From a virus (lineage: Duplodnaviria > Heunggongvirae > Uroviricota > Caudoviricetes): a stretch of 12,923 nucleotides of DNA. The notes beneath the pieces were generated by a model, which saw only the letters and a program-made list of their open reading frames with translations, was not told the origin of the DNA and did not search any database. A program made the position numbers and the translations under genes. The stretch covers positions 1-12,923 of IMG/VR virus record IMGVR_UViG_2534681651_000004; one strand, written 5' to 3'. This document shows, one piece after another, positions 1-12,923 of this stretch. Within the stretch, counting starts at the first letter, position 1. Every line of letters begins with the position of its first letter.

Positions 1-337
1 CTCGCTTTCAGCACCTGTCGTTTCCTTTCTTTTCAGAGGGTATTTTAAATAAAAACATTAAGTTATGACGAAGAAGAACGGAAACGCCTTAAACCGGAAA
101 ATTTTCATAAATAGCGAAAACACGCGAGGTCGCCGCCCCGTAACCTGTCGGATCGCCGGAAAGGACCCGCAAAATGATAATAATTATCATCTACATGTCA
201 CAACGTGCATCTACGCCATCAAACCACGTCAAATAATCAATTATGACGCAGGTATCGTATTAATTGATCTGCATCAACTTAACGTAAAAACAACTTCAGA
301 CAATACAAATCAGCGACACTGAATACAGGGCAACCTC

Positions 338-571
338 ATGTCAACGAAGAACAGAACCCGCAGAACAACAACCCGCAACATCCGCTTTCCTAACCAAATG
401 ATTGAACAAATTAACATCGCTCTTGTTCAAAAAGGGTCCGGGAATTTCTCAGCCTGGGTCATTGAAGCCTGCCGCCGGAGACTGTGCTCAGAAAAAAGAG
501 TTTCGCCTGAAGCAAACAAAGAAAAGAGTGACATTACTGAATTGCTCAGAAAACAGGTTAGACCAGATTGA
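338..571 (+). CDS. Small basic protein, possible ribbon-helix-helix DNA-binding protein (YnfO-like by position)
   Basis: 77-aa ORF with a basic N-terminus (TKNRTRRTTTRN) followed by IRFPNQMIEQINIALVQKGSGNFSAWVIEACRRRL, which looks like a beta-strand plus two helices (RHH). Weak Shine-Dalgarno (SD). Sits immediately upstream of the YdfO-like gene, as ynfO does in Qin. Confidence 0.45.
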   Translation: MSTKNRTRRTTTRNIRFPNQMIEQINIALVQKGSGNFSAWVIEACRRRLCSEKRVSPEANKEKSDITELLRKQVRPD

Positions 572-628
572 AGCAATTTAGATAATCGTGCAGACTACGC
601 CCCCTCATATCACATGGAAGGTACTACA

Positions 629-1039
629 ATGGCTCAGGTTGCCATTTTTAAACAAATATTCGATAAAGTGCGAAATAATTTAAACTATCACTGGTTTTAT
701 TCTGAACTAAAACGTCACAATGTCTCACATTACATTTACTATTTAGCCACAGAGAATATTCATCTTGTTCTTGAAAACGATAATACGGTTTTAATAAAAG
801 GACAGGGTAAGGTTGTAAATGTAAGATTTTCAAAAAATAAATGCCTTATAGAAGCCACCTTAAAAGGATTCAAATCAGGAGAGTTATCATTTTACGAATA
901 CAGGAAAAATCTTGCTACAGCAGGGGTTTTCAGATGGATTACAAATATCCACGAAAACAAAAGGTATTACTATACCTTTGATAATTCATTACTCTTTACT
1001 GAGAACATTCAGAACACTACACAAATATTTCCGCACTAA
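629..1039 (+). CDS. YdfO-like prophage protein (DUF1398 family, recalled)
   Basis: ORF track gives 614..1039; the ATG at 629 is preferred because GGAAGG lies about 8 nt upstream. AT-rich coding sequence. The [14 protein letters not shown]... N-terminus is recalled as Qin YdfO-like. Confidence 0.6.
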
Positions 1040-1325
1040 ATCATAACGTCCGGTTTCTTCCGTGCCAGAACCGGACTCGCTGGCATGATGAAATATGTGT
1101 ACCCGGTAACCCCGGTGTGCATCGTTTTTGATTATTCCCGCACACTCGCGCAGAAGGAGTTCCCCGTCGGGCTACGGTCTCTGTTAATACGGGAATACGG
1201 CGACGATACAGCGCATGATGTGTCAGGCTTGAATACCTTTATCCTTTAAAAGGGATATCAGTTAAGTTATCCCGTGTAGGGTATAAGCCATTATCAAGCC
1301 CACCCGTAGATAGGCTTTGTAATGG

Positions 1326-1583
1326 CTACTTCGCTTTTGCTTCCGCTCGCTTACGCCGGCGCTCTTCTTTCCTCTCGGCTTTTGCCATGTCCATGAATGC
1401 CTGCATGATCGAGTTCCGCATCATGTAGCTAACAAAGTGATGATTGACACAGCCGTTGAGGCGCAGCTGCTCGCCAAACTCATCCACCGAGGCCAATGCT
1501 TCCATCATGCCCTTCTCGCCTTTCATGAACTCTGAGAAGTCGCGCCCCGCTCTGGAGGCGCATTCAATAACACGATCACTCAT
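1326..1583 (-). CDS. Hypothetical 85-aa protein with a lysine/arginine-rich C-terminus, translationally coupled to the KilA-N gene
   Basis: Its ATG (1583..1581) overlaps the TGA stop of the upstream ORF (1582..1580) as ATGA. C-terminus is KAERKEERRRKRAEAKAK. Confidence 0.5.
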   Translation of the reverse strand: MSDRVIECASRAGRDFSEFMKGEKGMMEALASVDEFGEQLRLNGCVNHHFVSYMMRNSIMQAFMDMAKAERKEERRRKRAEAKAK

Positions 1584-2077
1584 CCCGGAAGCCCGGGGAT
1601 CGTAATCTGCAGCTGGTTAGCCAGGGAGTTAATCTCAGCGACCAACACTGGCTTCGTATAGCGCCATGCCGCCAGCCCTTGTCCGCAGAAGCTCGCCATA
1701 TCTTTTTTCTGATCAAACTCATGACACTTCATATTGAGCTGTGCACTTAAGCTGTTGCGATGCTGAAGTTCTCCGGTGAAGTAGTCATCCAGGACTTTAT
1801 AGGCTGCATATTTAAATCCGGGGTTTAGCCATGCTGCATAATCATAAGCAACAAACTTCCCGCCATATGTTCCACCGTGTACACCGCGCTCAGTAAAAAC
1901 CACAGATTCGTGGTTTTTCTCCAGCTCGGCTAAGAACTCTTTGGTCTGCTTGTTTCGCAGGTAGTGGTACGGAGATTCAGATTCACTTTTACCACTGGCT
2001 TTCCACATATCAGTGAGGCAGATCATGCCATCTTCACCGATACGAATTGGTTGATTGAAGAGGGTTAATGATTTCAT
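1580..2077 (-). CDS. KilA-N domain protein (antirepressor/Bro-N-like)
   Basis: 165 aa. Motifs ICLTDMWKASGK ... LRNKQTKEFLAELEK ... HGGTYGGKFVAYDYAAWLNPGF match the KilA-N pattern (ligand-binding N-terminus, GGTW.H core, WL.P.F). Confidence 0.7.
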   Translation of the reverse strand: MKSLTLFNQPIRIGEDGMICLTDMWKASGKSESESPYHYLRNKQTKEFLAELEKNHESVVFTERGVHGGTYGGKFVAYDYAAWLNPGFKYAAYKVLDDYFTGELQHRNSLSAQLNMKCHEFDQKKDMASFCGQGLAAWRYTKPVLVAEINSLANQLQITIPGLPG

Positions 2078-2190
2078 AGCGTGTACCTACTCTTTGAAAT
2101 GAACCTTTGCCGCACAGGAAACCAGCCCACCGAGGCTCGCCAGCACTAACTGGTATCCTCAAAGGCCCATTCCAAAGGGGCAGGTTCGGT

Positions 2191-2219
2191 GTAAAAAAAA
2201 CATGCGTTGCGGTACGCAT
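2191..2219 (-). terminator. Rho-independent terminator (second of a tandem pair after Rz)
   Basis: Minus strand reads ATGCGT-ACCGCA-ACGCAT followed by GTTTTTTTT. Confidence 0.6.
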
Positions 2220-2224
2220 TTATT

Positions 2225-2249
2225 GCAAAAAAGCCCCGCATCGCGAGGC
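2225..2249 (-). terminator. Rho-independent terminator at the end of the lysis operon
   Basis: Minus strand reads GCCTCGC-GAT-GCGGGGC (7-bp stem with one G.U pair) followed by TTTTTTG, about 30 nt downstream of the Rz stop. Confidence 0.65.
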
Positions 2250-2281
2250 TCATTAAATGGACTTTGTGATTTGCAAAAAAA

Positions 2282-2734
2282 TTATTTCAGGCATTGCGTC
2301 CTGATGTACTCCTGCAGGTAGTTAACCTGCGCGGTTATCCTGTCGATTCCACTTCGGAGACGGTAATAATTGAGTTCAGCATCTGCTGTAAGTCTTGGGC
2401 TTTCTCCATCGCCCATGCTGCTGGCTCCGGTCTTTGACTTTGCACATGAGGCGGCGACTTGCAGCCGCTTACGCCCAGCAGAAACATCATCACGGAGACT
2501 TTCGATAGTCGCATTAGCATCAGCAAGCTCCTTTGTATATCTGGCATCGAGTTCTGCTACGTCACGTTGACGCTTCTGCATGTCAGCGATGATGGATGTG
2601 GCTTTGTCGCGCTGTTCTTTGTAGGTCATGGCGTTATCACGGTAATGATTAACAGCCCATGACAGGCAGACGATGATGCAGATAACCAGAGCATAAATAA
2701 TCACGGCAACTCTGCTCACTGCTCTATCCCCCAA
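2282..2734 (-). CDS. Rz: Rz i-spanin (inner-membrane spanin subunit)
   Basis: Strong similarity to lambda Rz ([34 protein letters not shown]; N-terminal TM helix, coiled-coil body). The likely true start is the GTG at 2719, which overlaps the endolysin TGA stop as GTGA; the ORF-track start at 2734 is a TTG. Confidence 0.85.
2335..2520 (-). CDS. Rz1: Rz1 o-spanin (outer-membrane lipoprotein spanin), embedded in the +1 frame of Rz
   Basis: Out-of-frame ORF lying wholly inside Rz. Signal peptide [20 protein letters not shown] with lipobox VSGC, then a proline-rich mature part ([16 protein letters not shown]). Start is chosen at an internal Met of the 70-aa track ORF; the exact start is uncertain. 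Confidence 0.7.
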
Positions 2735-3249
2735 CAGGCTAATGCGCTCTCCTGATCACGACGAATAACCTGACCGTAACAGTTATTTGAACGAAGGCGG
2801 CAATCGCGCCCCCTGTCCTTAATCCACCAGCGAATCGCCTCGCAGGCACCTTTACGATCACCTGCATTCAGCCGCTTATAAAATGTCGACGGAAAACACT
2901 TAGCGGGGCCAATGTTATAGGGACAAAATGACGCGATACCCGCTTTTTGTGGTTCGGTCAGTGTTACTTTAATATTGCGATCCACCCATGCCAGCGCCTT
3001 ATCACGCTCAATGGCATTAACCTGATCGCATTTTTCCTTCGTCAGTGTCATGCCCGGAATAACAGGTTTACCATCTACTATCGTGGCACCGCGACAGATG
3101 GTCCATATGCCGGAACCATCGCGGTATGCCGTAGTGTGGTTACCCTCTTTTTCATCCAGAAACTGGTCAAGTATCTCAGGAGCAGATGCGCCTGCTCCAA
3201 TCAGCGCCAGAACGGCCGCTGACAGGCCGTATTTGATTTTTGCGTTCAT
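2716..3249 (-). CDS. R: SAR endolysin (phage-21 R-type lysozyme, T4-lysozyme fold)
   Basis: 177 aa. N-terminal weakly hydrophobic Gly/Ala-rich signal-anchor-release segment ([18 protein letters not shown]). Catalytic E-x8-D-x5-T triad in [16 protein letters not shown]. Confidence 0.9.
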
Positions 3250-3354
3250 GGATATTTATCAGGATTTATCGGTTTCTGAACCCTGGATATGTTTATCTGC
3301 CCCGGCCTGTTGAATCAGGCGGGGAAAAGGTAAATACAATCAAGAGGATTATTT

Positions 3355-3627
3355 ATGGACAATAACACCATTTCTCTACAGGAGTTGCTCGACTGCATTT
3401 CCAGGCTTCGGGATGATGTAAATGCCCTCACTGTTGCATTTTCATATCTGGCCTTATCAATTCCCAGAGAACAAATGCAACCAACACTGGCATCGCTCCT
3501 GCTTGAATCACGCAACCCCAAATGGTCCCAGGAACAACAAAATTCTTTTAAGTGGCTGGCGGCATTACTGGAAGAAAAATATGCTGGTAAAATTACCATT
3601 TCGGTGGAGTCTTCAGAAAATCAGTAA
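3355..3627 (+). CDS. Hypothetical 90-aa protein encoded antisense to the lysis operon
   Basis: Good SD (AAGAGGA, 7 nt spacer) before the ATG at 3355. Protein-like composition with a predicted helical character. Its 3' end overlaps the 3' end of the minus-strand 3593..3937 gene by 35 bp. Confidence 0.45.
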   Translation: MDNNTISLQELLDCISRLRDDVNALTVAFSYLALSIPREQMQPTLASLLLESRNPKWSQEQQNSFKWLAALLEEKYAGKITISVESSENQ

Positions 3628-3937
3628 TTCTTCCTGGTAGCTTTCCTTTGTAGGTTATCCACACATTCTGCGCCTCTAAAATTACGGGGCGCTTTTCCGG
3701 CGACTGCTCATCCCCTTCACATAACCCGGCAGCAACATCCAGGAAGACCTGTCTGATGCTCCTTCTGGCTGCAGACTCATAAAACTCCAGCGCAGCACCT
3801 TCAACACGGTTCAGCGAGATGTCCAGGTCAAAAATTTCACCGTCAAAGCGTTTTTTGTCTTGTAATGCTACAGTTACCGCAACTTTATTCTCAAAATTGC
3901 GGATCCCTTTCACAATCAGTTCATAGTCTTGGGTCAT
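3593..3937 (-). CDS. Small phage protein inserted between holin and endolysin (YdfR/DUF1327-like by position)
   Basis: 114-aa ORF with an ATG start; a GAGGAG SD lies inside the end of the holin gene. Occupies the slot between S and R where Qin-type prophages carry ydfR. Confidence 0.6.
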   Translation of the reverse strand: MTQDYELIVKGIRNFENKVAVTVALQDKKRFDGEIFDLDISLNRVEGAALEFYESAARRSIRQVFLDVAAGLCEGDEQSPEKRPVILEAQNVWITYKGKLPGRITDFLKTPPKW

Positions 3938-3941
3938 TATA

Positions 3942-4157
3942 TTACTCTCCTCTCGCAGCCTTTCTTCTGTCTTCTCTGATTTTGAAGTACAGATTTGTCA
4001 GATAAGTCAAAAAACCCAGAACCAGGCTACCCAGCACACCTATTGCTGCCCACTGTGAGGGCGTGACTTTATCGAGCAGCTGTAAAAACCAGTAGCCAGC
4101 ACTGCCTGCGGAGGTGCCGTAGGCAATGCCTGTTGAAATTTTGTCCATGGATTTCAT
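3942..4157 (-). CDS. S: Pinholin (S21-type class II holin with dual start)
   Basis: [26 protein letters not shown]...[30 protein letters not shown] is near-identical to recalled phage-21 S21. Dual-start motif M-K-S-M, with a strong GGAGGTGA SD before the ATG at 4157. The ORF-track 90-aa version (start 4214) is probably over-extended. Confidence 0.85.
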
Positions 4158-4254
4158 AGCCTCACCTCCGCACGGAACGGATGGCATAGTTATTATGTGT
4201 AGGCTTTCAGACACATCAATCAGAGCCTTAATTGATATATATGCTGGAGACGAT

Positions 4255-4283
4255 GCAATATAAAAAGCTCGCCGTAGCGAGCT
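4255..4283 (-). terminator. Rho-independent terminator closing the lipoprotein cargo block, upstream of the holin
   Basis: Minus strand reads AGCTCGC-TACG-GCGAGCT followed by TTTTTATATT. Confidence 0.65.
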
Positions 4284-4408
4284 AATAAAATGTATTTCTC
4301 TGATATTATGTTTATTTGTATTAGCTCAGACTTGACATCACAGGTTTCGTATATAGAACATCATCAAATCTGTCAGTTTGCTATGAATGAGATATAGTAA
4401 TTGAAGAG

Positions 4409-4804
4409 CTAACCTCGCATGTCAAAGCCAGATTTCTGAAAATCTCTGTAGACTTCCGGATTGTTGAAGGCCGGAAATTTGGCTTTATGAGCTGCGGACT
4501 TTATCGCTTCGCAATAGGCTTTATCACCGTTACTGGTAGATATTTTTAACGCCGTGCCATCCTGAGAGAATTCCATATGCAACCTGCATTTTTTCCCTTT
4601 CCAGTTATGCGGCTCATCAAGTTGGGCATTAATTGCAGCTCTGATTCCCCGCGCTTGCGCCCCCCATTCATCCTGATCATCCCAGCGTCCTGAACTGCAA
4701 CTACCCGTAGCAGTAGTTTTGTGGCAATCTGAAGGGTGTAAAGGTGTGCATCCCGCAACAAAACCGACCCCAAAAGTCAACATAACGATTTTCTTTAATC
4801 CCAC
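4409..4804 (-). CDS. Lipoprotein with a TolA C-terminal (domain III)-like domain, divergent paralog
   Basis: GTG start with a GAGGAG SD. Signal peptide plus lipobox VAGC (MGLKKIVMLTFGVGFVAGC). C-terminal region ...KGKKCRLHMEFSQDGTALKISTSNGDKAYCEAIKSAAHKAKFPAFNNPEVYRDFQKSGFDMRG shares the two Cys and the PEVY..FQ motif with the neighbouring paralog and with TolA domain III. Confidence 0.75.
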   Translation of the reverse strand: MGLKKIVMLTFGVGFVAGCTPLHPSDCHKTTATGSCSSGRWDDQDEWGAQARGIRAAINAQLDEPHNWKGKKCRLHMEFSQDGTALKISTSNGDKAYCEAIKSAAHKAKFPAFNNPEVYRDFQKSGFDMRG

Positions 4805-4954
4805 TTCTTGCTCCTCAATCCATTAAAATCTCAGCAATAGTAGTTGTTACGTCCGCCACTGGCTCAGAGCTGACTATCCGCTAAATTTAGCTCAGTGCCG
4901 TAGCTGTGTCAGAACAAACCTAAGCCGAAACCGTTTATTACAAAACAATAAATA

Positions 4955-5383
4955 TCAGGGTTTAAAATCCAGCACCCCATTTTGAAATACTTTATATACT
5001 TCCGGCGAAGGGGGGGCAGGTATATCAGCATTCTTTATCGCATTCATCGCTTCACGACATAAATCGAGGTCTCCACTTTCTCTTTTAACCTCCAGTAGAA
5101 GGCCATTCGGGGCCATATGCATTCTCAGTGTACACTCTTTTCCTGAATACTTACTCGCATCCCCGAACTGTTTTTCGATGGCGCTCTTGATTTGATGGGC
5201 ATACAGACGGATATCCTCACTAACATCAGAAGTACGTTCAGATGAACTCACATACTGTGTCTCTATTGCTTTATCGGAGTAATATGATGTACGGTCATGA
5301 TAATTTGTCGATACAGCATCAGTGCACCCGATAATAATCCCACTAATAATCAACATAAGAATTGATGCGCTACGAAAACCCAT
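4955..5383 (-). CDS. Lipoprotein with a TolA C-terminal (domain III)-like domain
   Basis: ATG start with a GAGGA SD. Signal peptide plus lipobox IIGC (MGFRSASILMLIISGIIIGC). C-terminus YAHQIKSAIEKQFGDASKYSGKECTLRMHMAPNGLLLEVKRESGDLDLCREAMNAIKNADIPAPPSPEVYKVFQNGVLDFKP closely matches the recalled E. coli TolA C-terminus (YAGQIKSAIESKFYDASSYAGKTCTLRIKLAPDGMLLDIKPEGGDPALCQAALAAAKLAKIPKPPSQAVYEVFKNAPLDFKP). Confidence 0.8.
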   Translation of the reverse strand: MGFRSASILMLIISGIIIGCTDAVSTNYHDRTSYYSDKAIETQYVSSSERTSDVSEDIRLYAHQIKSAIEKQFGDASKYSGKECTLRMHMAPNGLLLEVKRESGDLDLCREAMNAIKNADIPAPPSPEVYKVFQNGVLDFKP

Positions 5384-5916
5384 TTTTCCTCACATATGTC
5401 ATATAGTAAAGGATTATATATACCGTTGTTTTGGACGCTCAAACAGCGAATCAGATCAAATAAAACGCACATTTGTTAACATTTACACAAAGGCTGCGTG
5501 GAATATTCTGAAAGAATATCCATAATGTGGAGAGAATCTATTGAAGTGCATGGTGCCGGGTGCCTCCCGGTGAATTCAGTACCAGCACCTGAATCCGCGA
5601 TTATCCCATATACCTACTCGCTGATTGCCCCTCCGCACAGGGGGATTCACCATGCCAGTTTCTTTTAACAAACTCCCCGCAAACCAGAGAACAGTCAACC
5701 GCCTGAATTGTGAAGTATTTAAAAATTTCTCCCGCTAACTGATACCCGGCTAACAGTCTGGCGTTTTCTTTTTCAGCAACGGGAAAGCAACAACCACCAC
5801 ACCCGCCACCAGCACACCGTCAGCCAGCACTGACATTATCCGGCTGCTGCAATGCCATTCACAAAAACAGTAAGCAATCACTTTTTACCGTAACAGGTGA
5901 TAATCCAGATATGTAT

Positions 5917-6270
5917 CTACCCCAGATGAGTAATCCGAAGTTCATCCATACCACAGGTCCTGGCTATTCTGTTGTACTCCTGAACAAGAGCAAATAATTC
6001 TGAATTAGCAACCATGAACTCATCGCAAACCCTCTGTATAGCATCACTATTCAGAATAATAACGTCTCTTCCCGAAAGACGATCAGGAGCACAGAACAAA
6101 ACTGTCAAACGGCTGAAGGCCTTTGCTCGTGCTGCATTGACTATATCAATACGCTGCCTAAGGATGAAACACCCCGACGCCTCATCAATATTCACTCTAC
6201 CCACACCATATGAATGATAAATATTTAATGCTGAAAAAACCATTAGACCGTATAACAAACACTCAATCAA
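5917..6270 (-). CDS. Hypothetical protein (possible decayed gene)
   Basis: 117-aa ORF with a TTG start and no convincing SD; the first internal ATG (6243) also lacks an SD. Followed by about 400 bp without long ORFs. Confidence 0.35.
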   Translation of the reverse strand: MIECLLYGLMVFSALNIYHSYGVGRVNIDEASGCFILRQRIDIVNAARAKAFSRLTVLFCAPDRLSGRDVIILNSDAIQRVCDEFMVANSELFALVQEYNRIARTCGMDELRITHLG

Positions 6271-6380
6271 TACTTAACAGAACTTTTATTTTTGACAAAC
6301 ATATTATGTTTTCAACAATATCCTGAGCCAGGTATATTCCAGTATAAGGCTCTGCCGGAAGGAATCTGGAAGAATGAATA

Positions 6381-6457
6381 TGGCGCGCTGTACTGGATTC
6401 GAACCAGTGACCGATTGCTTAGAAGGCAATTGCTCTGTCCGGCTGAGCTAACAACGC
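6381..6457 (-). tRNA. tRNA-Arg (anticodon UCU, reads AGA), phage argO-like
   Basis: Reverse complement GCGTTGTTAGCTCAGCCGGACAGAGCAATTGCCTTCTAAGCAATCGGTCACTGGTTCGAATCCAGTACAGCGCGCCA folds as a cloverleaf: 7-bp acceptor stem, anticodon stem ATTGC/GCAAT, loop CTTCTAA, T-loop TTCGAATCC, encoded CCA. Confidence 0.85.
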
Positions 6458-6470
6458 TGAATACCGATAA

Positions 6471-6550
6471 TGGACCGCCATCGGGGACCCGCCCCCGCAC
6501 CAACAACCCTGTTATCGTGTCGTCTGCTCTTCCTGATAAGCTAATGGCGG
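6471..6550 (-). pseudogene. Degenerate tRNA-like element (possible argN-like remnant)
   Basis: Reverse complement CCGCCATTAGCTTATCAGGAAGAGC...CGGGGGCGGGTCCCCGATGGCGGTCCA has a perfect 7-bp acceptor stem (CCGCCAT/ATGGCGG), a D-arm (GCTT...GAGC), a T-stem and 3' TCCA. It lacks a canonical anticodon arm and has a non-consensus 6-nt T-loop. Confidence 0.45.
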
Positions 6551-6557
6551 TTTGTGA

Positions 6558-6633
6558 TGGTGGCCCTTGCTGGATTTGAACCAGCGACCTGGCGATTATG
6601 AGTCGCTCGCTCTCACCACTGAGCTAAAGGGCC
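6558..6633 (-). tRNA. tRNA-Ile2 (anticodon CAU, lysidine type; ileX/ileZ-like)
   Basis: Reverse complement GGCCCTTTAGCTCAGTGGTGAGAGCGAGCGACTCATAATCGCCAGGTCGCTGGTTCAAATCCAGCAAGGGCCACCA closely resembles recalled E. coli ileX, including the CUCAUAA anticodon loop, and has an encoded CCA. Confidence 0.8.
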
Positions 6634-6668
6634 GGGAGCAGAATAATAACGGTCCGTAATTAATTCCG

Positions 6669-6696
6669 CAATAAAAAACCCGCTCGGCGGCGGGTT
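6669..6696 (-). terminator. tR'-like rho-independent terminator downstream of pR'
   Basis: Minus strand reads AACCCGC-CGCCGA-GCGGGTT followed by TTTTTTAT, between the Q stop and the tRNA cluster. Confidence 0.7.
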
Positions 6697-6735
6697 GTAG
6701 AAACTCTTCTAACGTCAGGCATAAAAAGCCCATCA

Positions 6736-6771
6736 TTATGACGAATTTACCACAGATTCCGGAAAAATCAA
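6736..6771 (-). promoter_or_regulatory. pR'-like late promoter with probable qut/pause region
   Basis: Minus strand has TTGATT, a 16-nt spacer and TAAATT immediately after the Q stop. A -10-like CATAAT in the initial transcribed region fits a sigma70-dependent pause as in lambda pR'. Confidence 0.55.
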
Positions 6772-6776
6772 CCTTG

Positions 6777-7598
6777 TTACCTAGTTACCTTTTTTAACTG
6801 CCGCTCAGCCCATGCTTCTTCAATATCAAACCGGGTCACCAGCGCATCATAGAATTTCTTAACTGTTTTTTCCCATGACGCGCGTGTTATCTGGTTTGTC
6901 ACCTCGCATATAGCATTAAATGCCTCCGTTGATGGTAGTCTTTCATAGCCACGACCACCACAACGCTGGCAGTCTCTGATAACAGGCATACCACGTTTTA
7001 CCGACTCTTCACGGTGAATGGCGACACCACGCCCACGGCAATCCTTACAGGCGGTGGAAACCTCACCCTTTCCGCCACACTCCGGACAGGCAACTTTTAC
7101 CACCTCCCTGACTTTTTTCCATTCTTCCCAGTAAGACGGATACACACCTTTCGTACACTTTGCCCATACCGGCGGCTTACCATCCGGATACTGGACCTTG
7201 TTTGTAAAAACTACGCTTTCAATAAATTTTTCCCCATAGCAACAAGGGCACTGCTTTTTACTCGCTGCGCTGCGGGCATAATCCTCAAAAGCGTACGAAG
7301 CCATAATGCGCATCACTACCGGTTTTATTTCTGCCGGAAGTTTTCTCAACGCCGCCACACGATCGCACCGACTGAGTGCATAATCTGCCAGTAATTCTGT
7401 TGCCCGCGCCCTGTCATTCATACTGATGCCCATTTTCCCCAGGAACGCAGAAAACCCCATCTCAGCCCGATTCTGTGTCATGCCCTGCGCGGCCATCACA
7501 TCAGTGATACTCAGCGCATCTTTTGACGTTGAAGCCGATGCATCGGTCAGGCAAGGGGATTTTGGGGAGTAGTATTTCGGTAAATCTTCCAGTTTCAT
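6777..7598 (-). CDS. Q: Late antitermination protein Q (Phage_antitermQ family)
   Basis: 273 aa with multiple CxxC zinc-ribbon motifs (CPCCYGEK, CPECGGKG, CKDCRGRG, CQRCGGRG). Sits directly upstream of pR'/tR'. Its ATG overlaps the RusA TGA stop as ATGA. Confidence 0.8.
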   Translation of the reverse strand: MKLEDLPKYYSPKSPCLTDASASTSKDALSITDVMAAQGMTQNRAEMGFSAFLGKMGISMNDRARATELLADYALSRCDRVAALRKLPAEIKPVVMRIMASYAFEDYARSAASKKQCPCCYGEKFIESVVFTNKVQYPDGKPPVWAKCTKGVYPSYWEEWKKVREVVKVACPECGGKGEVSTACKDCRGRGVAIHREESVKRGMPVIRDCQRCGGRGYERLPSTEAFNAICEVTNQITRASWEKTVKKFYDALVTRFDIEEAWAERQLKKVTR

Positions 7599-7969
7599 TT
7601 TTTGACCTGCTCTTCATGCATTATGGGGTAAATCTTCACCCCCATACGTCCACCAGATACTGGCTGACCACGAACGATATTGATTTCATCAAACTGCTCA
7701 TCGTCCATTAACACTCCCGCATGCGTCAGCGCATCCAGCGGTGCTTTCAGGATATTGTCCAGGTCGCGACGACGCTTATCCGGTGGCTCTGCAATCACCT
7801 TTATCGCCAGCCTTCCGGACAGGCTTAATTTCAGCCGCTGCTGGCGAACAATAAGCGCCACAGCACGGCGATAACGCTTTCCCTCCTCCGAGATAAAATA
7901 TGTGCTGCCACGGCGTCGCCAGTAAGTGTTCACCGTCGGCGGGTAAGGTAAAACCAAATCTATGAGCAT
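7595..7969 (-). CDS. rusA: RusA Holliday-junction resolvase
   Basis: 124 aa. LPYPPTVNTYWRRRG ... PDKRRRDLDNILKAPLDALTHAGVLMDDEQ matches recalled RusA (PWPPS.N.YY / PDRRRRDLDNL.KA.FDALT). Confidence 0.85.
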   Translation of the reverse strand: MLIDLVLPYPPTVNTYWRRRGSTYFISEEGKRYRRAVALIVRQQRLKLSLSGRLAIKVIAEPPDKRRRDLDNILKAPLDALTHAGVLMDDEQFDEINIVRGQPVSGGRMGVKIYPIMHEEQVKK

Positions 7970-7981
7970 CAGTCACCTCTT

Positions 7982-9031
7982 TTACCCAAGCACGCCAGTT
8001 GCAAAGGCGTGATCAAGAAAACGAAAAATTAAATCAACCTGAGAACCATGCTTTTCTTCGAACGCCAGCGGATCCGCATGAAGCTCGTTGTGATGCTCCC
8101 GACACAGCGGTAGCGTGAAAATATCGTGAGATTTTGTCCCCATTCCGCCCTGACCATGACCAATCAGGTGATGGGGATCGTCGGTTGGCTTACCACAACA
8201 CGCACACGGCTGTGTCTTCACCCAGCGTGTGTATTTCTCGTTAACCCAGCGGCGACGTTTAGGTCGTTTCATAAAAGATTCCGGAGACTCAGGATCAACG
8301 GCAATGCTGACCACCGTCTTTTCCTGTGGTGGGTTCTGTTGCTGGTGGGCGTGAGGCAGCGGCGCAAGATTTTTTGTGCGCTGTTTCAGTATGCTGGTGG
8401 CGGTCTGCTCTCCCGGTACGATGTCGCTTTCACGGTACATTGAGCGGATTTTTTCCGCACGCAACCCCAGCGAACGACGTAATACCGCTTCCGGTAGCGC
8501 GTCCGCCACCTGATTGCGGACCGCCCACCAGGATAATTCAGCCAGAGATAATTCACGCTCCTGCGTACCGCTTATTGCGTGACCGATGACGTCAATCATC
8601 CATGCTGACAGGTTTTGATGAGCAAGTTGCTCGAGTGATTCGGATGTCTGGTCACGCAGCTGGTTGTCGCAGTGCCAGCACAACACCATTGCGCCGGTAC
8701 CATAACGGTGAATGACGGTTTCGCTGTGATGATAATCGCCGTGTGGCCACTGGCAGGATTTAATATGGCGCAACAGCCAGTCAGACAATGCACCAGCACC
8801 ACAAGCAGCACGAATCACCCGTGCGTTACTGAAAAACGGCAGCAATGTTTTGTCTTCCACCAGCGGCTGGCGAGCGGCAGGAACGACCCCGGACGGCAGA
8901 TTACGCATGCTTTTCGGTTCCGGCTCCACCAGTAACCGGGTATTGTGGAATACCGGCATGGATTCACGGCCCGGCTTAACGATCACCAGCCCGAGTTCCG
9001 GTACCAGAACAGGTCGAAGTAATACCCGCAC
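7982..9031 (-). CDS. DUF968-family protein (YdfU-like) with a C-terminal Cys/His HNH-like motif
   Basis: 349 aa with a GTG start preceded by GGAGG. C-terminus CACCGKPTDDPHHLIGHGQGGMGTKSHDIFTLPLCREHHNELH. Positioned before rusA and Q as ydfU is in Qin. Confidence 0.7.
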   Translation of the reverse strand: MRVLLRPVLVPELGLVIVKPGRESMPVFHNTRLLVEPEPKSMRNLPSGVVPAARQPLVEDKTLLPFFSNARVIRAACGAGALSDWLLRHIKSCQWPHGDYHHSETVIHRYGTGAMVLCWHCDNQLRDQTSESLEQLAHQNLSAWMIDVIGHAISGTQERELSLAELSWWAVRNQVADALPEAVLRRSLGLRAEKIRSMYRESDIVPGEQTATSILKQRTKNLAPLPHAHQQQNPPQEKTVVSIAVDPESPESFMKRPKRRRWVNEKYTRWVKTQPCACCGKPTDDPHHLIGHGQGGMGTKSHDIFTLPLCREHHNELHADPLAFEEKHGSQVDLIFRFLDHAFATGVLG

Positions 9032-9032
9032 G

Positions 9033-9422
9033 TTACCTCCAGATGCGTTGCTGGAATGTGTGGGACGGACGCGGTGGGCGTTCGGAGTAAGGCAATCTGA
9101 CTGAGATTATCCAGTGACGGTAGTCGAGGCTAAGGGCTTTTTTAACCTCGTATCCGCGCCTGCGGTAACACTGAATTATCCATTCAGCCTGCTCTTCAGT
9201 GCATGGTGGATGCTGGAACCAGTCCGATTTGAATGCATGAAAACGCCGTCCGCACCTGCTGGCAAAGACGGCAGAATCATCAGAATTGTGTAATTTGGTA
9301 TCGTGCGCCATCGGTTGTCTCTGCTGGCGCAGCAGGTGCCAGTTGTTCAGGCTGGCGTATAAAGTATAAATAAACTGGTTCCAGTGTAAAGCCCCTACAT
9401 TAATGGAATAAAAGTCAAACAA
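9033..9422 (-). CDS. Hypothetical nin-region protein (start uncertain)
   Basis: ORF-track start is a TTG with no SD; the first ATG is at 9311 (92 aa). Stop lies 1 nt before the start of the downstream DUF968 gene. Confidence 0.45.
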   Translation of the reverse strand: MFDFYSINVGALHWNQFIYTLYASLNNWHLLRQQRQPMAHDTKLHNSDDSAVFASRCGRRFHAFKSDWFQHPPCTEEQAEWIIQCYRRRGYEVKKALSLDYRHWIISVRLPYSERPPRPSHTFQQRIWR

Positions 9423-9576
9423 CAGATTGTTGGGATAAACACAACGCTTATTATTAAAAGCGATTAGATAAATTAAATTTTAATGTTATGCAATTTTACC
9501 AGATCACCATAACATCTCGTTTGAAACCACCGAAACAACAACCATATCAATATTGATTATGTTAAAGTGAGTAAAT

Positions 9577-9663
9577 ATGGAAAACAACAAATCTGCACAT
9601 TACGCTCCTTTTTTATCTGTGATACTTTTTGTTTTATGCTGTGTGTGGGCATTATTTTTATAA
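9577..9663 (+). CDS. Candidate small hydrophobic peptide (28 aa), convergent with hok
   Basis: MENNKSAHYAPFLSVILFVLCCVWALFL has a polar N-terminus and a 17-residue hydrophobic stretch. Modest SD (GTGAG), AT-rich upstream region. Below the ORF-track size cutoff. Confidence 0.3.
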   Translation: MENNKSAHYAPFLSVILFVLCCVWALFL

Positions 9664-9671
9664 AAATATTT

Positions 9672-9701
9672 ACAGATAAAATAAACCCGCCGAAGCGGGT
9701 T
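9672..9701 (-). terminator. Rho-independent terminator of the hok transcript
   Basis: Minus strand reads AACCCGC-TTCG-GCGGGTT followed by TATTTTAT, about 70 nt after the hok stop. Confidence 0.7.
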
Positions 9702-9769
9702 AAGTGCGGGTGCATTGAGGATGCCTGACACATCAGAGGTGGCGAGGGATTTCTCCCTCGCCAAGTCTC

Positions 9770-9925
9770 TTACTCCTCAGGTTCGTAGACTGTGAAGACA
9801 GCGACCTCCGTCTGGCCGGTTCGGATTCGTACCTCGCAGAGGTCTTTCCTCGTTACCAGTGCCGTCACTATGACGGTTAAACAGATGACGATCAGGGCGA
9901 TTAACATCGCCTTTTGCTGCTTCAT
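9770..9925 (-). CDS. hok: Hok-family type I toxin (HokD/RelF-like)
   Basis: MKQQKAMLIALIVICLTVIVTALVTRKDLCEVRIRTGQTEVAVFTVYEPEE is near-identical to recalled HokD. AAGGAG SD upstream of the ATG at 9925. The 70-aa ORF-track version (start 9982) is an in-frame upstream extension, possibly mok-like. Confidence 0.9.
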   Translation of the reverse strand: MKQQKAMLIALIVICLTVIVTALVTRKDLCEVRIRTGQTEVAVFTVYEPEE

Positions 9926-10136
9926 AGCCTGCTTCTCCTTGCCTTTCGGCACGTAAGAGGCTAACCTAGATTTGCCGTTCATAGATTGAGCCTCAGATTA
10001 ATGTTAAGCGTCTTGCAGGACGCGTAATGTTAACTGGGGCTTTTCTCTATCTGCCTTTGGTGTTCATGCCTGAGACAGATAGCCTCAAGCACCCGCAGCC
10101 ATTCTACTTAACTCCCGTCACCTGGCCAATATAAAA

Positions 10137-10226
10137 TCAATCAGAAAGGCGATCCATAAGAACAACAGCAAGACAATAAATTGCCATTACAGCTGCAATA
10201 GCCAGCGCACATTTGAGAACCAGCAC
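10137..10226 (-). CDS. Candidate small hydrophobic peptide (29 aa) with a strong SD
   Basis: AGGAGG, a 5-nt spacer, then a GTG start; encodes MLVLKCALAIAAVMAIYCLAVVLMDRLSD. Not on the ORF track (below size cutoff). A 17-bp perfect palindrome lies about 50 bp upstream. Confidence 0.3.
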   Translation of the reverse strand: MLVLKCALAIAAVMAIYCLAVVLMDRLSD

Positions 10227-10275
10227 GACAACCTCCTGTATTGGACGTACACCAGTCCTGATAAATATGAGGCTC

Positions 10276-10292
10276 TCTCATCATTGATGAGA
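10276..10292. promoter_or_regulatory. 17-bp perfect palindrome TCTCATCATTGATGAGA (candidate operator)
   Basis: Perfect 8-1-8 inverted repeat between the AT-rich 345-aa gene and the hok unit, upstream of the small ORF 10137..10226. Confidence 0.4.
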
Positions 10293-10511
10293 TACAACTA
10301 TTGGGTATAGTTTCTGTGATTTTGTTCTGTAGAAATGGAACACAACAACCAGTAACCACCAGCGATTCTTTAAATACGCCAAATCCGACGCAAGCTAACC
10401 TTCTAGTCCGCTTTGGGCGAAGACCGGACGTTCGATAGGTGTGAACTAGTAACTTTAAAAACATTTAATTACCAGTAAAAAAACAAGAATATACTATCAC
10501 TTTTCCAATTT

Positions 10512-11549
10512 TTAATTACCCTTATCAATTTTAAGAAATACATTTCCAATCTCATCAGAATAATCCTGTATTATTTTTGAAATGACGGCATGATCAATGG
10601 TTGGTTTTAAGAATAAAAGTGTCACAGTAATCTGCATCAAACTAATAGCAGTAGCATGGGCTGGATCAGCCATTCCTGAATCACTTTGCCCGACCAATAA
10701 TATATCATCACCAGTTTCACAGAGACCAAGCCTATTTCTCATTGCCTTGGAACCGGTGTGTACATTCTGACTCGCCCACTTATAATAAGGGCGCATGTGT
10801 TCTAACTGAACATCTTTCTCAATAGCTCCAAACCCCACTTTATTATGGTTAGGGAAAATATAAGATGCCCACCCATAATTATCTGCATATTTTTTGCCGT
10901 ATTTTTTTATTAATAGATCAAATTGAACTTTACACTCAGCTATTTCTTCAATAGTTGGACCTTTTGCTTCTAACCGGTGCTCGTACTTTTTGTGTTCCAA
11001 CATTCCAGTATATGAATCAACCACTTCATGGTAGTAAAAGCGCTCAGCACACTCTTTTCCATGCTTTGCTATAAACATAGCTGTGGCTGCTACCTCATGA
11101 AGTGCTCGCCATCTCGCTTGGGCAGCATCTGCAAATCCATTCTTTAAGAGACACAAAATTTCGTTGGCGATGTGGCAAGCTCTTGCGTGATGCCGAACGA
11201 CTAAATCAAAAACCACATCCTCTTCAGAGGCAGCTTGTGGTCTATAAGAACGATTGAACTCTTCACCGGACTCCGTGCATATCACTATAAGTGTTTCGAG
11301 CAAATCAAAAGCCTCTGCCCATCTTGAAATATTTCTCTCAACAAATTCATCACAAAGAGAACGATGTTCTCTAAGCATTGCATTGGCCGAGCCAATAAGA
11401 GATTTTTTAACGACAATGGCTATTTTGGGAATTAGGTTATTAATTTCTTTTTCGATATCAGCGTCACCAGATAAATCAAGCCTCTCTTTTAAAAGGCTGT
11501 CTATGTGCTCAAGCAAAATATTATGAAAAGTATCCATGTCATATCTCAA
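10512..11549 (-). CDS. AT-rich foreign hypothetical protein, candidate defence/abortive-infection protein (possible HEPN-like Rx4-6H motifs)
   Basis: 345-aa ORF with an ATG start, visibly lower GC than its neighbours and flanked by AT-rich intergenic DNA. Contains RHHARACH and RWRALH (Rx4-6H-type) motifs. No confident family assignment from memory. Confidence 0.7.
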   Translation of the reverse strand: MRYDMDTFHNILLEHIDSLLKERLDLSGDADIEKEINNLIPKIAIVVKKSLIGSANAMLREHRSLCDEFVERNISRWAEAFDLLETLIVICTESGEEFNRSYRPQAASEEDVVFDLVVRHHARACHIANEILCLLKNGFADAAQARWRALHEVAATAMFIAKHGKECAERFYYHEVVDSYTGMLEHKKYEHRLEAKGPTIEEIAECKVQFDLLIKKYGKKYADNYGWASYIFPNHNKVGFGAIEKDVQLEHMRPYYKWASQNVHTGSKAMRNRLGLCETGDDILLVGQSDSGMADPAHATAISLMQITVTLLFLKPTIDHAVISKIIQDYSDEIGNVFLKIDKGN

Positions 11550-11642
11550 TAAGTTTTAAATCCATGTGGCACACCCATAATATAAAAATAAACAGCATGC
11601 CAGTCTAAGTCTGGCTATTTGTATATCATATCACCTGAAACA

Positions 11643-11671
11643 TTGACAGATGTAACCCACCAAAATATTAT
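11643..11671 (+). promoter_or_regulatory. Near-consensus sigma70 promoter on the plus strand (TTGACA-N17-TATTAT)
   Basis: TTGACA at 11643..11648, exact 17-nt spacer, TATTAT at 11666..11671. It points rightward, antisense to the 11765..12190 gene; no plus-strand ORF follows. Confidence 0.5.
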
Positions 11672-11764
11672 CAATGACCACTCTTGGCACAAAGCGAACA
11701 ACCACGCTAGCTCTACCTTGTGCCATGAAAATGTCAATGCATATCTGAACTAATGCCCTTTAAT

Positions 11765-12190
11765 CTAGTAACGTCTAAAATACCTAACATTTCCCTGATA
11801 AAATGCCATAATGCGCTGCATAACTTCGCTCTTCCGGCACTCGCGACAGATTATGTTTAGACAACTATCGTAGCGACGTATTTCTCCGTCAGGTAATGAC
11901 CAGATAAGGTCCGGATCAACCGCAGATGGTTTCTTCAGCTTTGCCCTTGAGAGCTTTTTACGGGCATTTTGCCAGTCCTTACGCGCCTGTTCAGACGGGA
12001 ATAACCCGTAACCAGAGTTGTATACATCGCCACTGGCAACCAGCTCTCTGGCCAGAACGCTCATCAGATATCTTGTTGCCCCAGTTTTAGTTTCCAGTTG
12101 TCGTAACGTCTCGCGCCCACTCTGGCGTACGAGTTCAACAACCTGCCCTTTAATTTTTTCCCGCTCTTCTTGTGTAAAAACTTTTGCCAC
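11765..12190 (-). CDS. Small hypothetical protein with a probable helix-turn-helix near the N-terminus
   Basis: 141 aa with a GTG start preceded by AGGAGGG. The segment TLRQLETKTGATRYLMSVLAREL looks like an HTH. Basic C-terminal half with CxxC (CRECR). Confidence 0.6.
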   Translation of the reverse strand: MAKVFTQEEREKIKGQVVELVRQSGRETLRQLETKTGATRYLMSVLARELVASGDVYNSGYGLFPSEQARKDWQNARKKLSRAKLKKPSAVDPDLIWSLPDGEIRRYDSCLNIICRECRKSEVMQRIMAFYQGNVRYFRRY

Positions 12191-12230
12191 AAGCCCTCCT
12201 GAAAATTACCTCATGACCAGAAATTAACAC

Positions 12231-12884
12231 TTACCCCCTGAAGCCCGGCGGAATTTCGTTATCCGGTTCAGAAATATGATTCACACAACGCTGGTTGTTC
12301 GTGCCGCTTACCGGGAGCAACCAGGGGTTCTCAAAATTCCGGTCCGGTCCAAAAAACGTCGTCGCTCGCTGAACAAATTCCGTTCCCGTTTTCCCGGTAG
12401 CCGCCAAGTATCTTGCGTAACGCCTCACGCCATCCAGCATGGCCTCTGGTGGCACCCCCTCGCGTAATCTGGCCTTCCAGGCACTGAAAGCGGATTTCTT
12501 CGGGTTTGCTCCGGCACGCAACGGGTACTCCCGCCAGACCTGTTCGAACACATCCGGATAATCCACTCGTCCCACAGACAGCCCGGTGTTTTCCGGGACT
12601 ACCCGATCGGCTTCCCGCTGAATGGCGGAATCGGCTTCAGGCTGCTGCAGTTGGTGTGATTGTTCCGGCCTTTGGGTCATCACCTGCTGCACAGCGCCCG
12701 AATCGGCTTTCAGCGCATACGCTGAATCGGCTTCCGGTGTCGTGCCTGCTGGCTGACCAGGATTGACGGTCTGAACATCCCCTGCCTGGTTCGTGGCGTT
12801 TTTTACGCCATGGACCATAGTGTTTTGATCTTCTTGATCTGTATCTTTATCTGTATCTTTATCTGTCGTGACTCGTCGTGACAT
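12231..12884 (-). CDS. Hypothetical protein, possibly the C-terminal part of a longer replication-type protein whose reading frame stays open to the window edge
   Basis: 217 aa from the ATG at 12884, but the frame has no stop through 12923, so the gene may start beyond the window. N-terminal acidic low-complexity region (TTDKDTDKDTDQEDQ; Pro/Gln/Ala-rich linker); conserved-looking C-terminal domain (VDYPDVFEQVWREYPLRAGANPKKSAFSAWKARL...). Confidence 0.6.
   Translation of the reverse strand: MSRRVTTDKDTDKDTDQEDQNTMVHGVKNATNQAGDVQTVNPGQPAGTTPEADSAYALKADSGAVQQVMTQRPEQSHQLQQPEADSAIQREADRVVPENTGLSVGRVDYPDVFEQVWREYPLRAGANPKKSAFSAWKARLREGVPPEAMLDGVRRYARYLAATGKTGTEFVQRATTFFGPDRNFENPWLLPVSGTNNQRCVNHISEPDNEIPPGFRG
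12837..12866. repeat. 12-bp tandem direct repeat (ATCTGTATCTTT, about 2.5 copies)
   Basis: atctgtatcttt atctgtatcttt atctgt; encodes the DKDTDKDTD repeat on the minus strand. Confidence 0.7.
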
Positions 12885-12913
12885 GTGCGTGACATTTCGT
12901 GATGCGCCGTGAC
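12867..12913. repeat. Iteron-like array: five CGTGAC/T hexamers at 10-11 bp spacing
   Basis: CGTGAC at 12867, 12877, 12888 and 12908, and CGTGAT at 12898, giving helical-turn periodicity. The array straddles the start of the edge ORF. Confidence 0.6.
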
Positions 12914-12923
12914 AATCGCCATT

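Follow-up and report, generated by a model that had tools for sequence, protein, structure and literature searches.

A conserved hydrophobic mini-ORF upstream of hok is a probable small membrane-peptide gene of Escherichia lambdoid phages, next to a palindrome that is a minority allele

Does the unannotated gap upstream of a prophage hok gene encode a further small membrane peptide, and is the perfect palindrome that lies beside it an operator? The question is raised by a 12,923-nucleotide (nt) stretch of a caudoviricete genome (IMG/VR record IMGVR_UViG_2534681651_000004, positions 1 to 12,923; hereafter, 'the window'). The window belongs to a Qin-like lambdoid prophage of Escherichia coli: its positions 9700–10520 are 100% identical to such a prophage found in many E. 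coli chromosomes. An original prediction, made from the letters of the window, had singled out a 29-codon open reading frame (ORF; here the 'mini-ORF') and a 17-bp palindrome, and had proposed a second small membrane toxin, a leader peptide, or a regulatory unit for hok or the adjacent AT-rich gene. Comparison with relatives leads us to favour, with reasonable though incomplete confidence, the reading that lambdoid phages of Escherichia carry in the mini-ORF a genuine gene for a small membrane peptide, placed directly upstream of hok with a weak promoter of its own, and that the palindrome, as a derived allele, alters the −35 element of this promoter.

The elements that the original prediction described for the frame, namely 29 codons, a GTG start, an AGGAGG motif and 5-nt spacing, are all present in the minus strand of the window (Table 1). 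The frame indeed ends just upstream of the hok transcript, its stop lying 43 nt before the hok transcription start and 7 nt before the hok −35 hexamer. The encoded peptide is mostly hydrophobic, as had been stated, with a grand average of hydropathy (Kyte–Doolittle) of 1.81 overall and 2.55 for residues 1–24, which form a hydrophobic stretch of helix length followed by a short charged tail, DRLSD. By itself, the combination of mini-ORF and Shine–Dalgarno (SD) sequence is near chance level in 12.9 kb: the window has two cases of an AGGAGG followed at 4–9 nt by a start codon and 25 or more codons, the other one being the real DUF977 gene, where Markov-1 simulations predict 0.53 and 39% of them contain at least one. 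For perfect inverted repeats (arms of 8 bp or more, loops of 0–3 nt) the count in the window is three, against 0.65 expected. Because neither feature alone exceeds chance, the case for the mini-ORF and against the palindrome was built on related sequences.

Two samples of viral contigs were drawn: the anchor was the 3′-terminal 17 nt of the ORF in one and, in the other, 18 nt upstream of it, a choice that introduces no bias as to the ORF body. In the upstream-anchored set the frame is intact and free of indels in all 107 copies. The 157 alignable copies carry 29 distinct substitutions, which divide into 16 synonymous and 13 replacement changes in the mini-ORF frame, an excess over the 30% synonymous share expected (binomial P = 0.0047); the other two sense frames give 8:21 and 4:25. 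In the same copies, 21% of sites at codon positions 1 and 2 are variable compared with 47% in the flanks, a 2.3-fold reduction (P = 1.5e-4), and position 3, with 52% variable sites, does not differ from the flanks (P = 0.70). The ratio of nonsynonymous to synonymous polymorphism (pN/pS) lies between 0.18 and 0.65 in every listed pair. This pattern of variation shows that replacement sites are under constraint and that silent sites evolve like the surrounding DNA.

The same holds over greater distances. Frame, SD and start persist in relatives whose pairwise synonymous differences reach ~46%, and the frame is intact in the divergent types L023, L200, L201, L203, L204 and L205, so conservation of the frame extends across related prophages and phages. 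Types L200, L201, L204 and L205 retain the GTG start, and in two divergent types GTG has become ATG: L023/L024, which also have a GGGAGG SD and a 3-nt in-frame deletion, and the plasmid copy L203, which differs from the window ORF at 17 of 90 nt (~81% identity). That 3-nt deletion is the sole indel in intact copies of the ORF, whereas the aligned 5′ untranslated regions (UTRs) carry 1-nt indels. The SD is retained as AGGAGG or GGGAGG in 7 of 8 divergent 5′ UTR types. A frameshift, caused by a 2-nt deletion, is seen only in the closely related viral contigs L058 and L089, over the region homologous to 10137–10295; there the SD has also changed from AGGAGG to AGAAAG, the −10 hexamer from CATATT to TGTATT, and the −35 is altered. 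To judge from these joint lesions, which fit gene decay after inactivation, the two copies are pseudogenised. On the comparative evidence we think it probable that the mini-ORF is a real, selected peptide gene.

Several other features of the same DNA were considered and set aside. The 107-aa Cys-rich ORF that overlaps the mini-ORF (10141–10464) was taken to be spurious, as its frame shows no synonymous excess (8:21 or 4:25) and indels break it upstream. Inside the mini-ORF, a weak 8-bp hairpin with G–U pairs is followed by AAUUUAUUGU (10183–10202, minus strand), and most polymorphisms preserve its pairing, although not significantly so (estimated P ~ 0.06); as a terminator it was rejected, being weak, one of its kind against 1.1 expected, and only partly kept in divergent types.

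A candidate promoter accompanies the frame. Every intact, divergent homologue has the hexamer CATATT (TATATT in two types), and in several mosaics homology extends upstream no further than this hexamer. Exactly 17 nt upstream of it, TTGAAT, TTGAGT, TTGAAG or TTGCTG is found in L002, L192, L203, L204 and L205, the spacer sequences having diverged. We infer that the conserved hexamers and their 17-nt spacing are the footprint expected of a sigma-70 promoter, which would start transcription near 10257 and leave a leader of ~32 nt. The −10-like element, the ~32-nt leader, the SD and the ORF are co-inherited as a unit beside hok in different mosaic contexts. A terminator scan predicted none between the DUF5677 gene and the mini-ORF, nor between the mini-ORF and hok, its single hit being the weak hairpin within the mini-ORF; because none separates its stop from the hok promoter, the mini-ORF transcript probably runs on into hok, and from this arrangement read-through both from upstream and into hok seems likely. 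In the mechanism that we propose, the peptide would be expressed from its own weak sigma-70 promoter (TTGAAT, 17 nt, CATATT), by read-through of the early-right operon, or both, on a transcript extending into hok. Translation would start at the GTG, and the product, essentially one hydrophobic helix of transmembrane length with a short charged C-terminal tail, would insert into the inner membrane and act there as an accessory ('moron'-type) peptide, possibly toxic if over-expressed.

The mini-ORF is widespread in E. coli and almost never annotated. Among 5426 complete E. coli genomes, 3060 match the ~330-bp block that carries it, and 1892 (~35%) match, at 80% coverage or more, the 134 nt that comprise ORF, leader and −10-like element, with up to 3 copies per genome; none of 12 sampled genome records has an annotated feature under the 134-nt match. 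The mini-ORF is also present in the isolated phages Tritos, Evi, mEp460 and HannyBb. A scan of single genomes, one for each species, gave matches in Shigella flexneri, E. ruysiae and E. albertii only, apart from three short contigs of metagenome-assembled genomes assigned to Collinsella, Scatousia and Haemophilus, which are in our view wrongly binned E. coli DNA. Queried with the 46-aa open frame, a collection of 5.8 billion proteins yielded only Escherichia entries, at 81% identity or more and without a Pfam domain. Names given to the homologues are 'hypothetical', 'membrane protein' or 'putative membrane protein', and the start chosen differs from record to record (29, 30, 34, 37 or 42 aa). 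No longer homologue was found and the hits end in ...LMDRLSD, except for one read-through variant, so a truncated remnant of a longer gene was rejected. The exact window peptide is GCZ25347.1, on 146 contigs, and in at least one genome the annotation pipeline PGAP calls an orthologue as WP_000960667.1 (29 aa). These entries belong to a 29-aa RefSeq/GenBank cluster (WP_000960667.1, GCZ25347.1, APK03751.1, CDU35968.1 and others) that represents the same locus and frame, with peptides 86–100% identical to ours; they are automatic calls, none of them characterised, and in the RefSeq genome identical to the window the mini-ORF is uncalled. Neither the peptide strings nor the accession WP_000960667 were found in any paper, and the upstream ORF is not mentioned in the hokW/sokW paper (PMC8621323) or in a Pas-sRNA preprint. 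The mini-ORF is, in short, catalogued in databases but uncharacterised.

The palindrome fares differently. A perfect 17-bp dyad is present ~50 bp upstream of the mini-ORF, as the original prediction had it, with arms TCTCATCA and TGATGAGA around a central T. Among the 107 upstream-anchored relatives, 66 carry the majority allele TTGAATCACTGACGAGA or close variants of it, in which 3–4 of 8 arm positions pair (4 of 8 in TTGAATCACTGACGAGA); 24 carry the intermediate allele TTGAATCAATGATGAGA (5 of 8); and only 17 carry the perfect allele TCTCATCAATGATGAGA (8 of 8). The window allele is also that of APEC O78 (NC_020163.1), which matches the window at 100% identity over 10096–10510, whereas phage mEp460 (LR597641.1) has the common TTGAAT allele. 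The palindrome is missing from 84% of relatives and from all divergent types. The changed bases read TTGA in all other and divergent alleles, and because every divergent type has TTGA there, the perfect dyad is the derived state. The original prediction would have been refuted if both frame and palindrome lacked conservation; the frame is conserved and the palindrome is not, and a regulatory role for the palindrome is not supported. Taken across these alleles, the palindrome appears as a derived minority allele, not a conserved operator.

The perfect allele differs by TGA>CTC, three adjacent bases within the −35 hexamer at 10292–10287, and each new base is complementary to the other arm. We infer that the change arose, most simply, by a quasi-palindrome template-switch mutation. 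Such mutations have reportedly been described by Ripley and by Dutra and Lovett; the likeness lies in clustered substitutions that bring an imperfect repeat from 5 of 8 paired arm positions to all 8, with the difference that the mechanism here is read from the allele series only and its direction rests on TTGA in the divergent types. Because the palindrome allele swaps TTGAAT for TCTCAT, the promoter of the window mini-ORF is probably weakened, and the window may therefore hold a promoter-weakened copy of the gene. L058 has a perfect palindrome variant of its own, TCTCATCA-C-TGATGAGA. The other two perfect palindromes of the window are TATTTTTATAAAAATA at 9653–9668 and ATGATAAT-A-ATTATCAT at 174–190. 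On the plus strand, a promoter-like pair, TTGATG-16-TATAGT (10284–10311), faces away from the mini-ORF and towards the variable cargo slot described below; its TTGATG is made or improved by the palindrome and intermediate alleles (the majority has GTGATT), and its TATAGT is widely conserved. This pair may be a divergent promoter for genes in the cargo slot, for example the DUF4145 gene in mEp460.

Table 1. Coordinates of the mini-ORF, its candidate signals and the neighbouring features in the window
Feature	Position	Strand	Basis or remark
Mini-ORF, GTG start, 29 codons and TGA, peptide MLVLKCALAIAAVMAIYCLAVVLMDRLSD	10226..10137 (TGA 10139-10137)	minus	sequence
Shine–Dalgarno AGGAGG	10237..10232	minus	5-nt spacer ttgtc before GTG
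−10-like hexamer CATATT (candidate)	10264..10269	minus	inference; comparison of relatives
−35 position (candidate)	10287..10292	minus	17 nt upstream of CATATT; TTGAAT in most relatives, TCTCAT in window
Perfect 8+1+8 palindrome TCTCATCATTGATGAGA = TCTCATCA-T-TGATGAGA	10276..10292		50 bp upstream of GTG in ORF sense
Conserved unannotated block carrying the mini-ORF, upstream of hok	10096..10429	minus	conservation rises from ~0.4 to >0.85 at 10432-10420
hok promoter-like pair TTGGCC-17-TAGAAT	10101..10129	minus	promoter scan
hok mRNA leader and sok region	9920..10094	minus	Rfam RF01794, 110 bits, E=8e-25
hok (HokW/HokD-type) toxin coding sequence	9770..9925	minus	RefSeq: type I toxin-antitoxin system toxin HokD, WP_000813256.1
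DUF5677 gene (AT-rich)	10512-11549	minus	RefSeq record

On the minus strand of the RefSeq record, replication and DUF977 genes are followed by DUF5677, the unannotated gap, a hokD-type hok, a small hypothetical gene, DUF968, RusA and the Q antiterminator. The 5′ end of the hok mRNA, GGGUGCUUGAGG at 10094, was placed by the Rfam match to the hok/sok leader. An AT-rich stretch upstream of the hok promoter pair, reaching to ~10165, accompanies hok in every context: in EC958 the QueH stop directly adjoins it, and O157 EC4115 has a diverged version. Many matches in a search with the upstream block stop at query position 64–72. The last ~8 codons of the mini-ORF are encoded by this stretch, that is, by the hok promoter module, so the mini-ORF straddles a mosaic junction. 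The block as a whole is absent from the hok loci of EC958, O157 and Sp5, and O157 EC4115 carries only a broken version. The reverse arrangement occurs in L191 (Shigella flexneri CP182557.1, 2790–3200) and 9 viral contigs, where the mini-ORF is intact (…LMERLSD) and hok is replaced, from its −35 on, by unrelated sequence; in L191 the mini-ORF sits in a decayed prophage between a fragment of an MFS-transporter gene and a DUF1971/YeaR-like gene.

At its upstream edge (~10420–10432) the conserved block adjoins a variable cargo slot. This slot, which spans 10430–11549 in the window and is also seen in L002 and L197–L202, lies directly upstream of the mini-ORF and hok in the minus-strand sense. It holds DUF5677 here and elsewhere DUF4145, an AIPR abortive-infection family protein, an AAA ATPase, DUF2326, QueH or an alpha/beta hydrolase; the DUF4145 cargo also occurs in phage mEp460, there on the opposite strand. 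The slot looks like a lambdoid hotspot for defence-like cargo. Within the hok locus, an ATG at 9982 opens a 70-codon frame in frame with hok (9770–9982, minus strand), the equivalent of which in HannyBb is annotated as a MokW-like protein. Further along, downstream of the Q antiterminator gene, the window contains an STnc100 small RNA (sRNA) match (5494–5684, minus strand, 111 bits) and two tRNA genes (6384–6457 and 6561–6633, both minus strand), which RefSeq names tRNA-Arg and tRNA-Ile.

The strongest competitor to a selected peptide gene is the view that the ORF arose by chance and is not translated, lying in a young non-coding block hitch-hiking with hok and seeming conserved through recent spread among E. 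coli prophages; we consider this unlikely, but it accounts for a number of observations that weigh against our reading. The whole 330-bp block is well conserved, not the ORF alone, the ORF with its SD is near chance for a window of this size, and, because only 5 of 252 possible mutations are nonsense, an open frame alone says little. The constraint is moderate: variable columns distribute 14:9:15 by codon position over 10 representative, divergent haplotypes, a periodicity that is not significant (P = 0.26), a mid-helix arginine (M14R) occurs in one type, and loss of both cysteines is possible. The ORF crosses the junction with the hok module, a synonymous excess is absent from its last ~8 codons, and it is missing from most hok loci (2191 versus 12763 places). 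All members of the family come from Escherichia and Shigella, at 81% identity or more, and no homologue has a known function; the two anchored samples are also partly of shared origin, being drawn from related E. coli prophages that are not phylogenetically independent. For the promoter, TTGAAT-17-CATATT scores 8 of 12, under the threshold of the promoter scan, and types L023, L200, L201 and L195 have no recognisable −35. What speaks against hitch-hiking is that codon positions 1 and 2 are less polymorphic than the flanks whereas position 3 equals them, that the synonymous excess is limited to the mini-ORF frame, and that pN/pS stays below 1 in every pair. Moreover, the start survives GTG>ATG twice, the one indel in intact copies is in frame, and SD, −10 and frame are lost jointly in L058 and L089.

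If a peptide is made, is it a toxin? The proposal of a second small membrane toxin stands in so far as a small hydrophobic membrane peptide seems to be encoded, with conserved frame, SD and start and with constraint on its sequence; the assignment as a toxin goes beyond what the comparison supports. A second type I toxin, held in check by an unrecognised antitoxin RNA encoded in trans or by Sok acting on it, would suit a short, strongly hydrophobic peptide of 29 aa (<60) with a predicted membrane helix, a charged tail and a strong SD, adjoining a bona fide type I system in a prophage. The hokW/sokW pair is, moreover, a functional toxin–antitoxin pair in Sp5 of O157, and was shown to affect phage release (PMC8621323). 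The toxin-family search that the original prediction had suggested, however, gave no match to Hok/Gef or to any other family in Pfam, NCBIfam (E ≤ 10), PHROGs, PADLOC or PDB, the only PHROG match having E = 0.74, and BLASTP of the peptide against the window Hok produced no alignment at E ≤ 100. Membership of Hok/Gef (PF01848) or descent from a degenerate hok duplicate was rejected, there being neither protein similarity nor repeats between the block and hok. No conserved antisense promoter was found, as the sole plus-strand promoter-like site facing the ORF (10108–10137) loses its −10 at 10132–10137 (TAAAAT>TGAAAT) in about half of relatives; no direct repeats in 9730–10520 could yield a divergent antitoxin sRNA complementary to the leader; and Rfam gave no family besides sok, even at E ≤ 10. 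Nor is there a leader that sequesters the SD: the fold of 10275..10095 is no more stable than its shuffles (z = 0.15), and the consensus fold of 8 divergent leaders reaches −4.2 kcal/mol with an unfavourable alifold covariation term. A hammerhead-like TGATGAG was also dismissed, with no Rfam match and no conserved structure. We regard a second type I toxin as improbable.

Still less probable, and in our view very much so, is a regulatory unit in which the ORF serves as a leader or upstream ORF for hok or the adjacent gene and the palindrome as an operator for a prophage repressor. The short distance to the hok start, with no terminator between, means that read-through transcripts would carry both frames, and the palindrome overlaps promoter-like hexamers on both strands (the minus-strand −35 position and the plus-strand TTGATG-16-TATAGT). 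There is also a 13/15 inverted repeat between 9988–10002 and 10261–10275; on the minus strand it makes AUUAAUCUGAGGCUC of the hok leader complementary to GAGCCUCAUAUUUAU, the −10 region of the mini-ORF, and a read-through transcript could pair there. As a functional element this repeat was rejected, since it is near chance (~0.2 expected, an estimate) and its GAGCCTC (GAGCCUC) half is lost in divergent types. By its position, the mini-ORF is not the leader peptide envisaged by the original prediction: the hok promoter, +1 and leader, as placed by the promoter pair and the Rfam match, are all downstream of it, which leaves it outside the hok transcript, and the DUF5677 gene is upstream of it. 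No alternative terminator or antiterminator structures, no terminator after the mini-ORF and no excess structure were found; hok loci such as those of EC958, O157 and Sp5 work without the block; and the rarity of the palindrome among relatives and its absence from divergent types speak against an operator. A more speculative extension of the membrane-peptide reading, which we hold to be doubtful, is that the peptide is a functional partner of Hok, whether a second membrane-active toxin, a modulator or an immunity peptide. Made from a 5′-extended transcript initiated at its own promoter and reading into hok, it would form with Hok a two-peptide killing or lysis-timing module in some lambdoid phages, and the palindrome allele would be a natural promoter-off switch produced by template switching.

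The membrane-peptide gene that we favour invites comparison with several known groups. With the E. coli type I toxins (Hok/Gef, TisB, IbsC, ShoB, LdrD, ZorO and DinQ) it shares a length below 60 aa, a single hydrophobic helix and a strong SD, and it lies at a prophage site beside hok/sok; it differs in that sequence similarity, an antitoxin RNA and an inhibitory leader were not detected. Small inner-membrane proteins of E. coli such as YohP, YkgR, MgtS (YneM) and KdpF were reportedly brought to light by Hemm et al. in 2008 and later work of the Storz laboratory, through ribosome-binding-site models and ribosome profiling. Like them, the mini-ORF would encode a single helix of 20–50 aa behind a strong SD, is missed by annotation and is recognised mainly by conservation of its frame; unlike them, it is phage-borne, occurs in Escherichia and Shigella only and is known here from sequence alone. 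The mok frame lies inside the hok mRNA and overlaps hok, thereby coupling translation. The mini-ORF resembles it as a short hok-associated frame on the same strand, but it ends before hok transcription starts and is missing from most hok loci.

For readers of such loci, the palindrome serves as a warning that a perfect dyad, however striking to the eye, can have arisen recently as a by-product of mutation and need not be an operator. If the mini-ORF is translated, it would represent a widespread small membrane peptide, carried by about one in three complete E. coli genomes and by inducible lambdoid phages but almost always overlooked in standard annotation, and the known set of prophage small proteins, itself under-counted, would grow by one. 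It would also raise the question of whether the peptide, or transcription through its gene, influences Hok expression or host killing.

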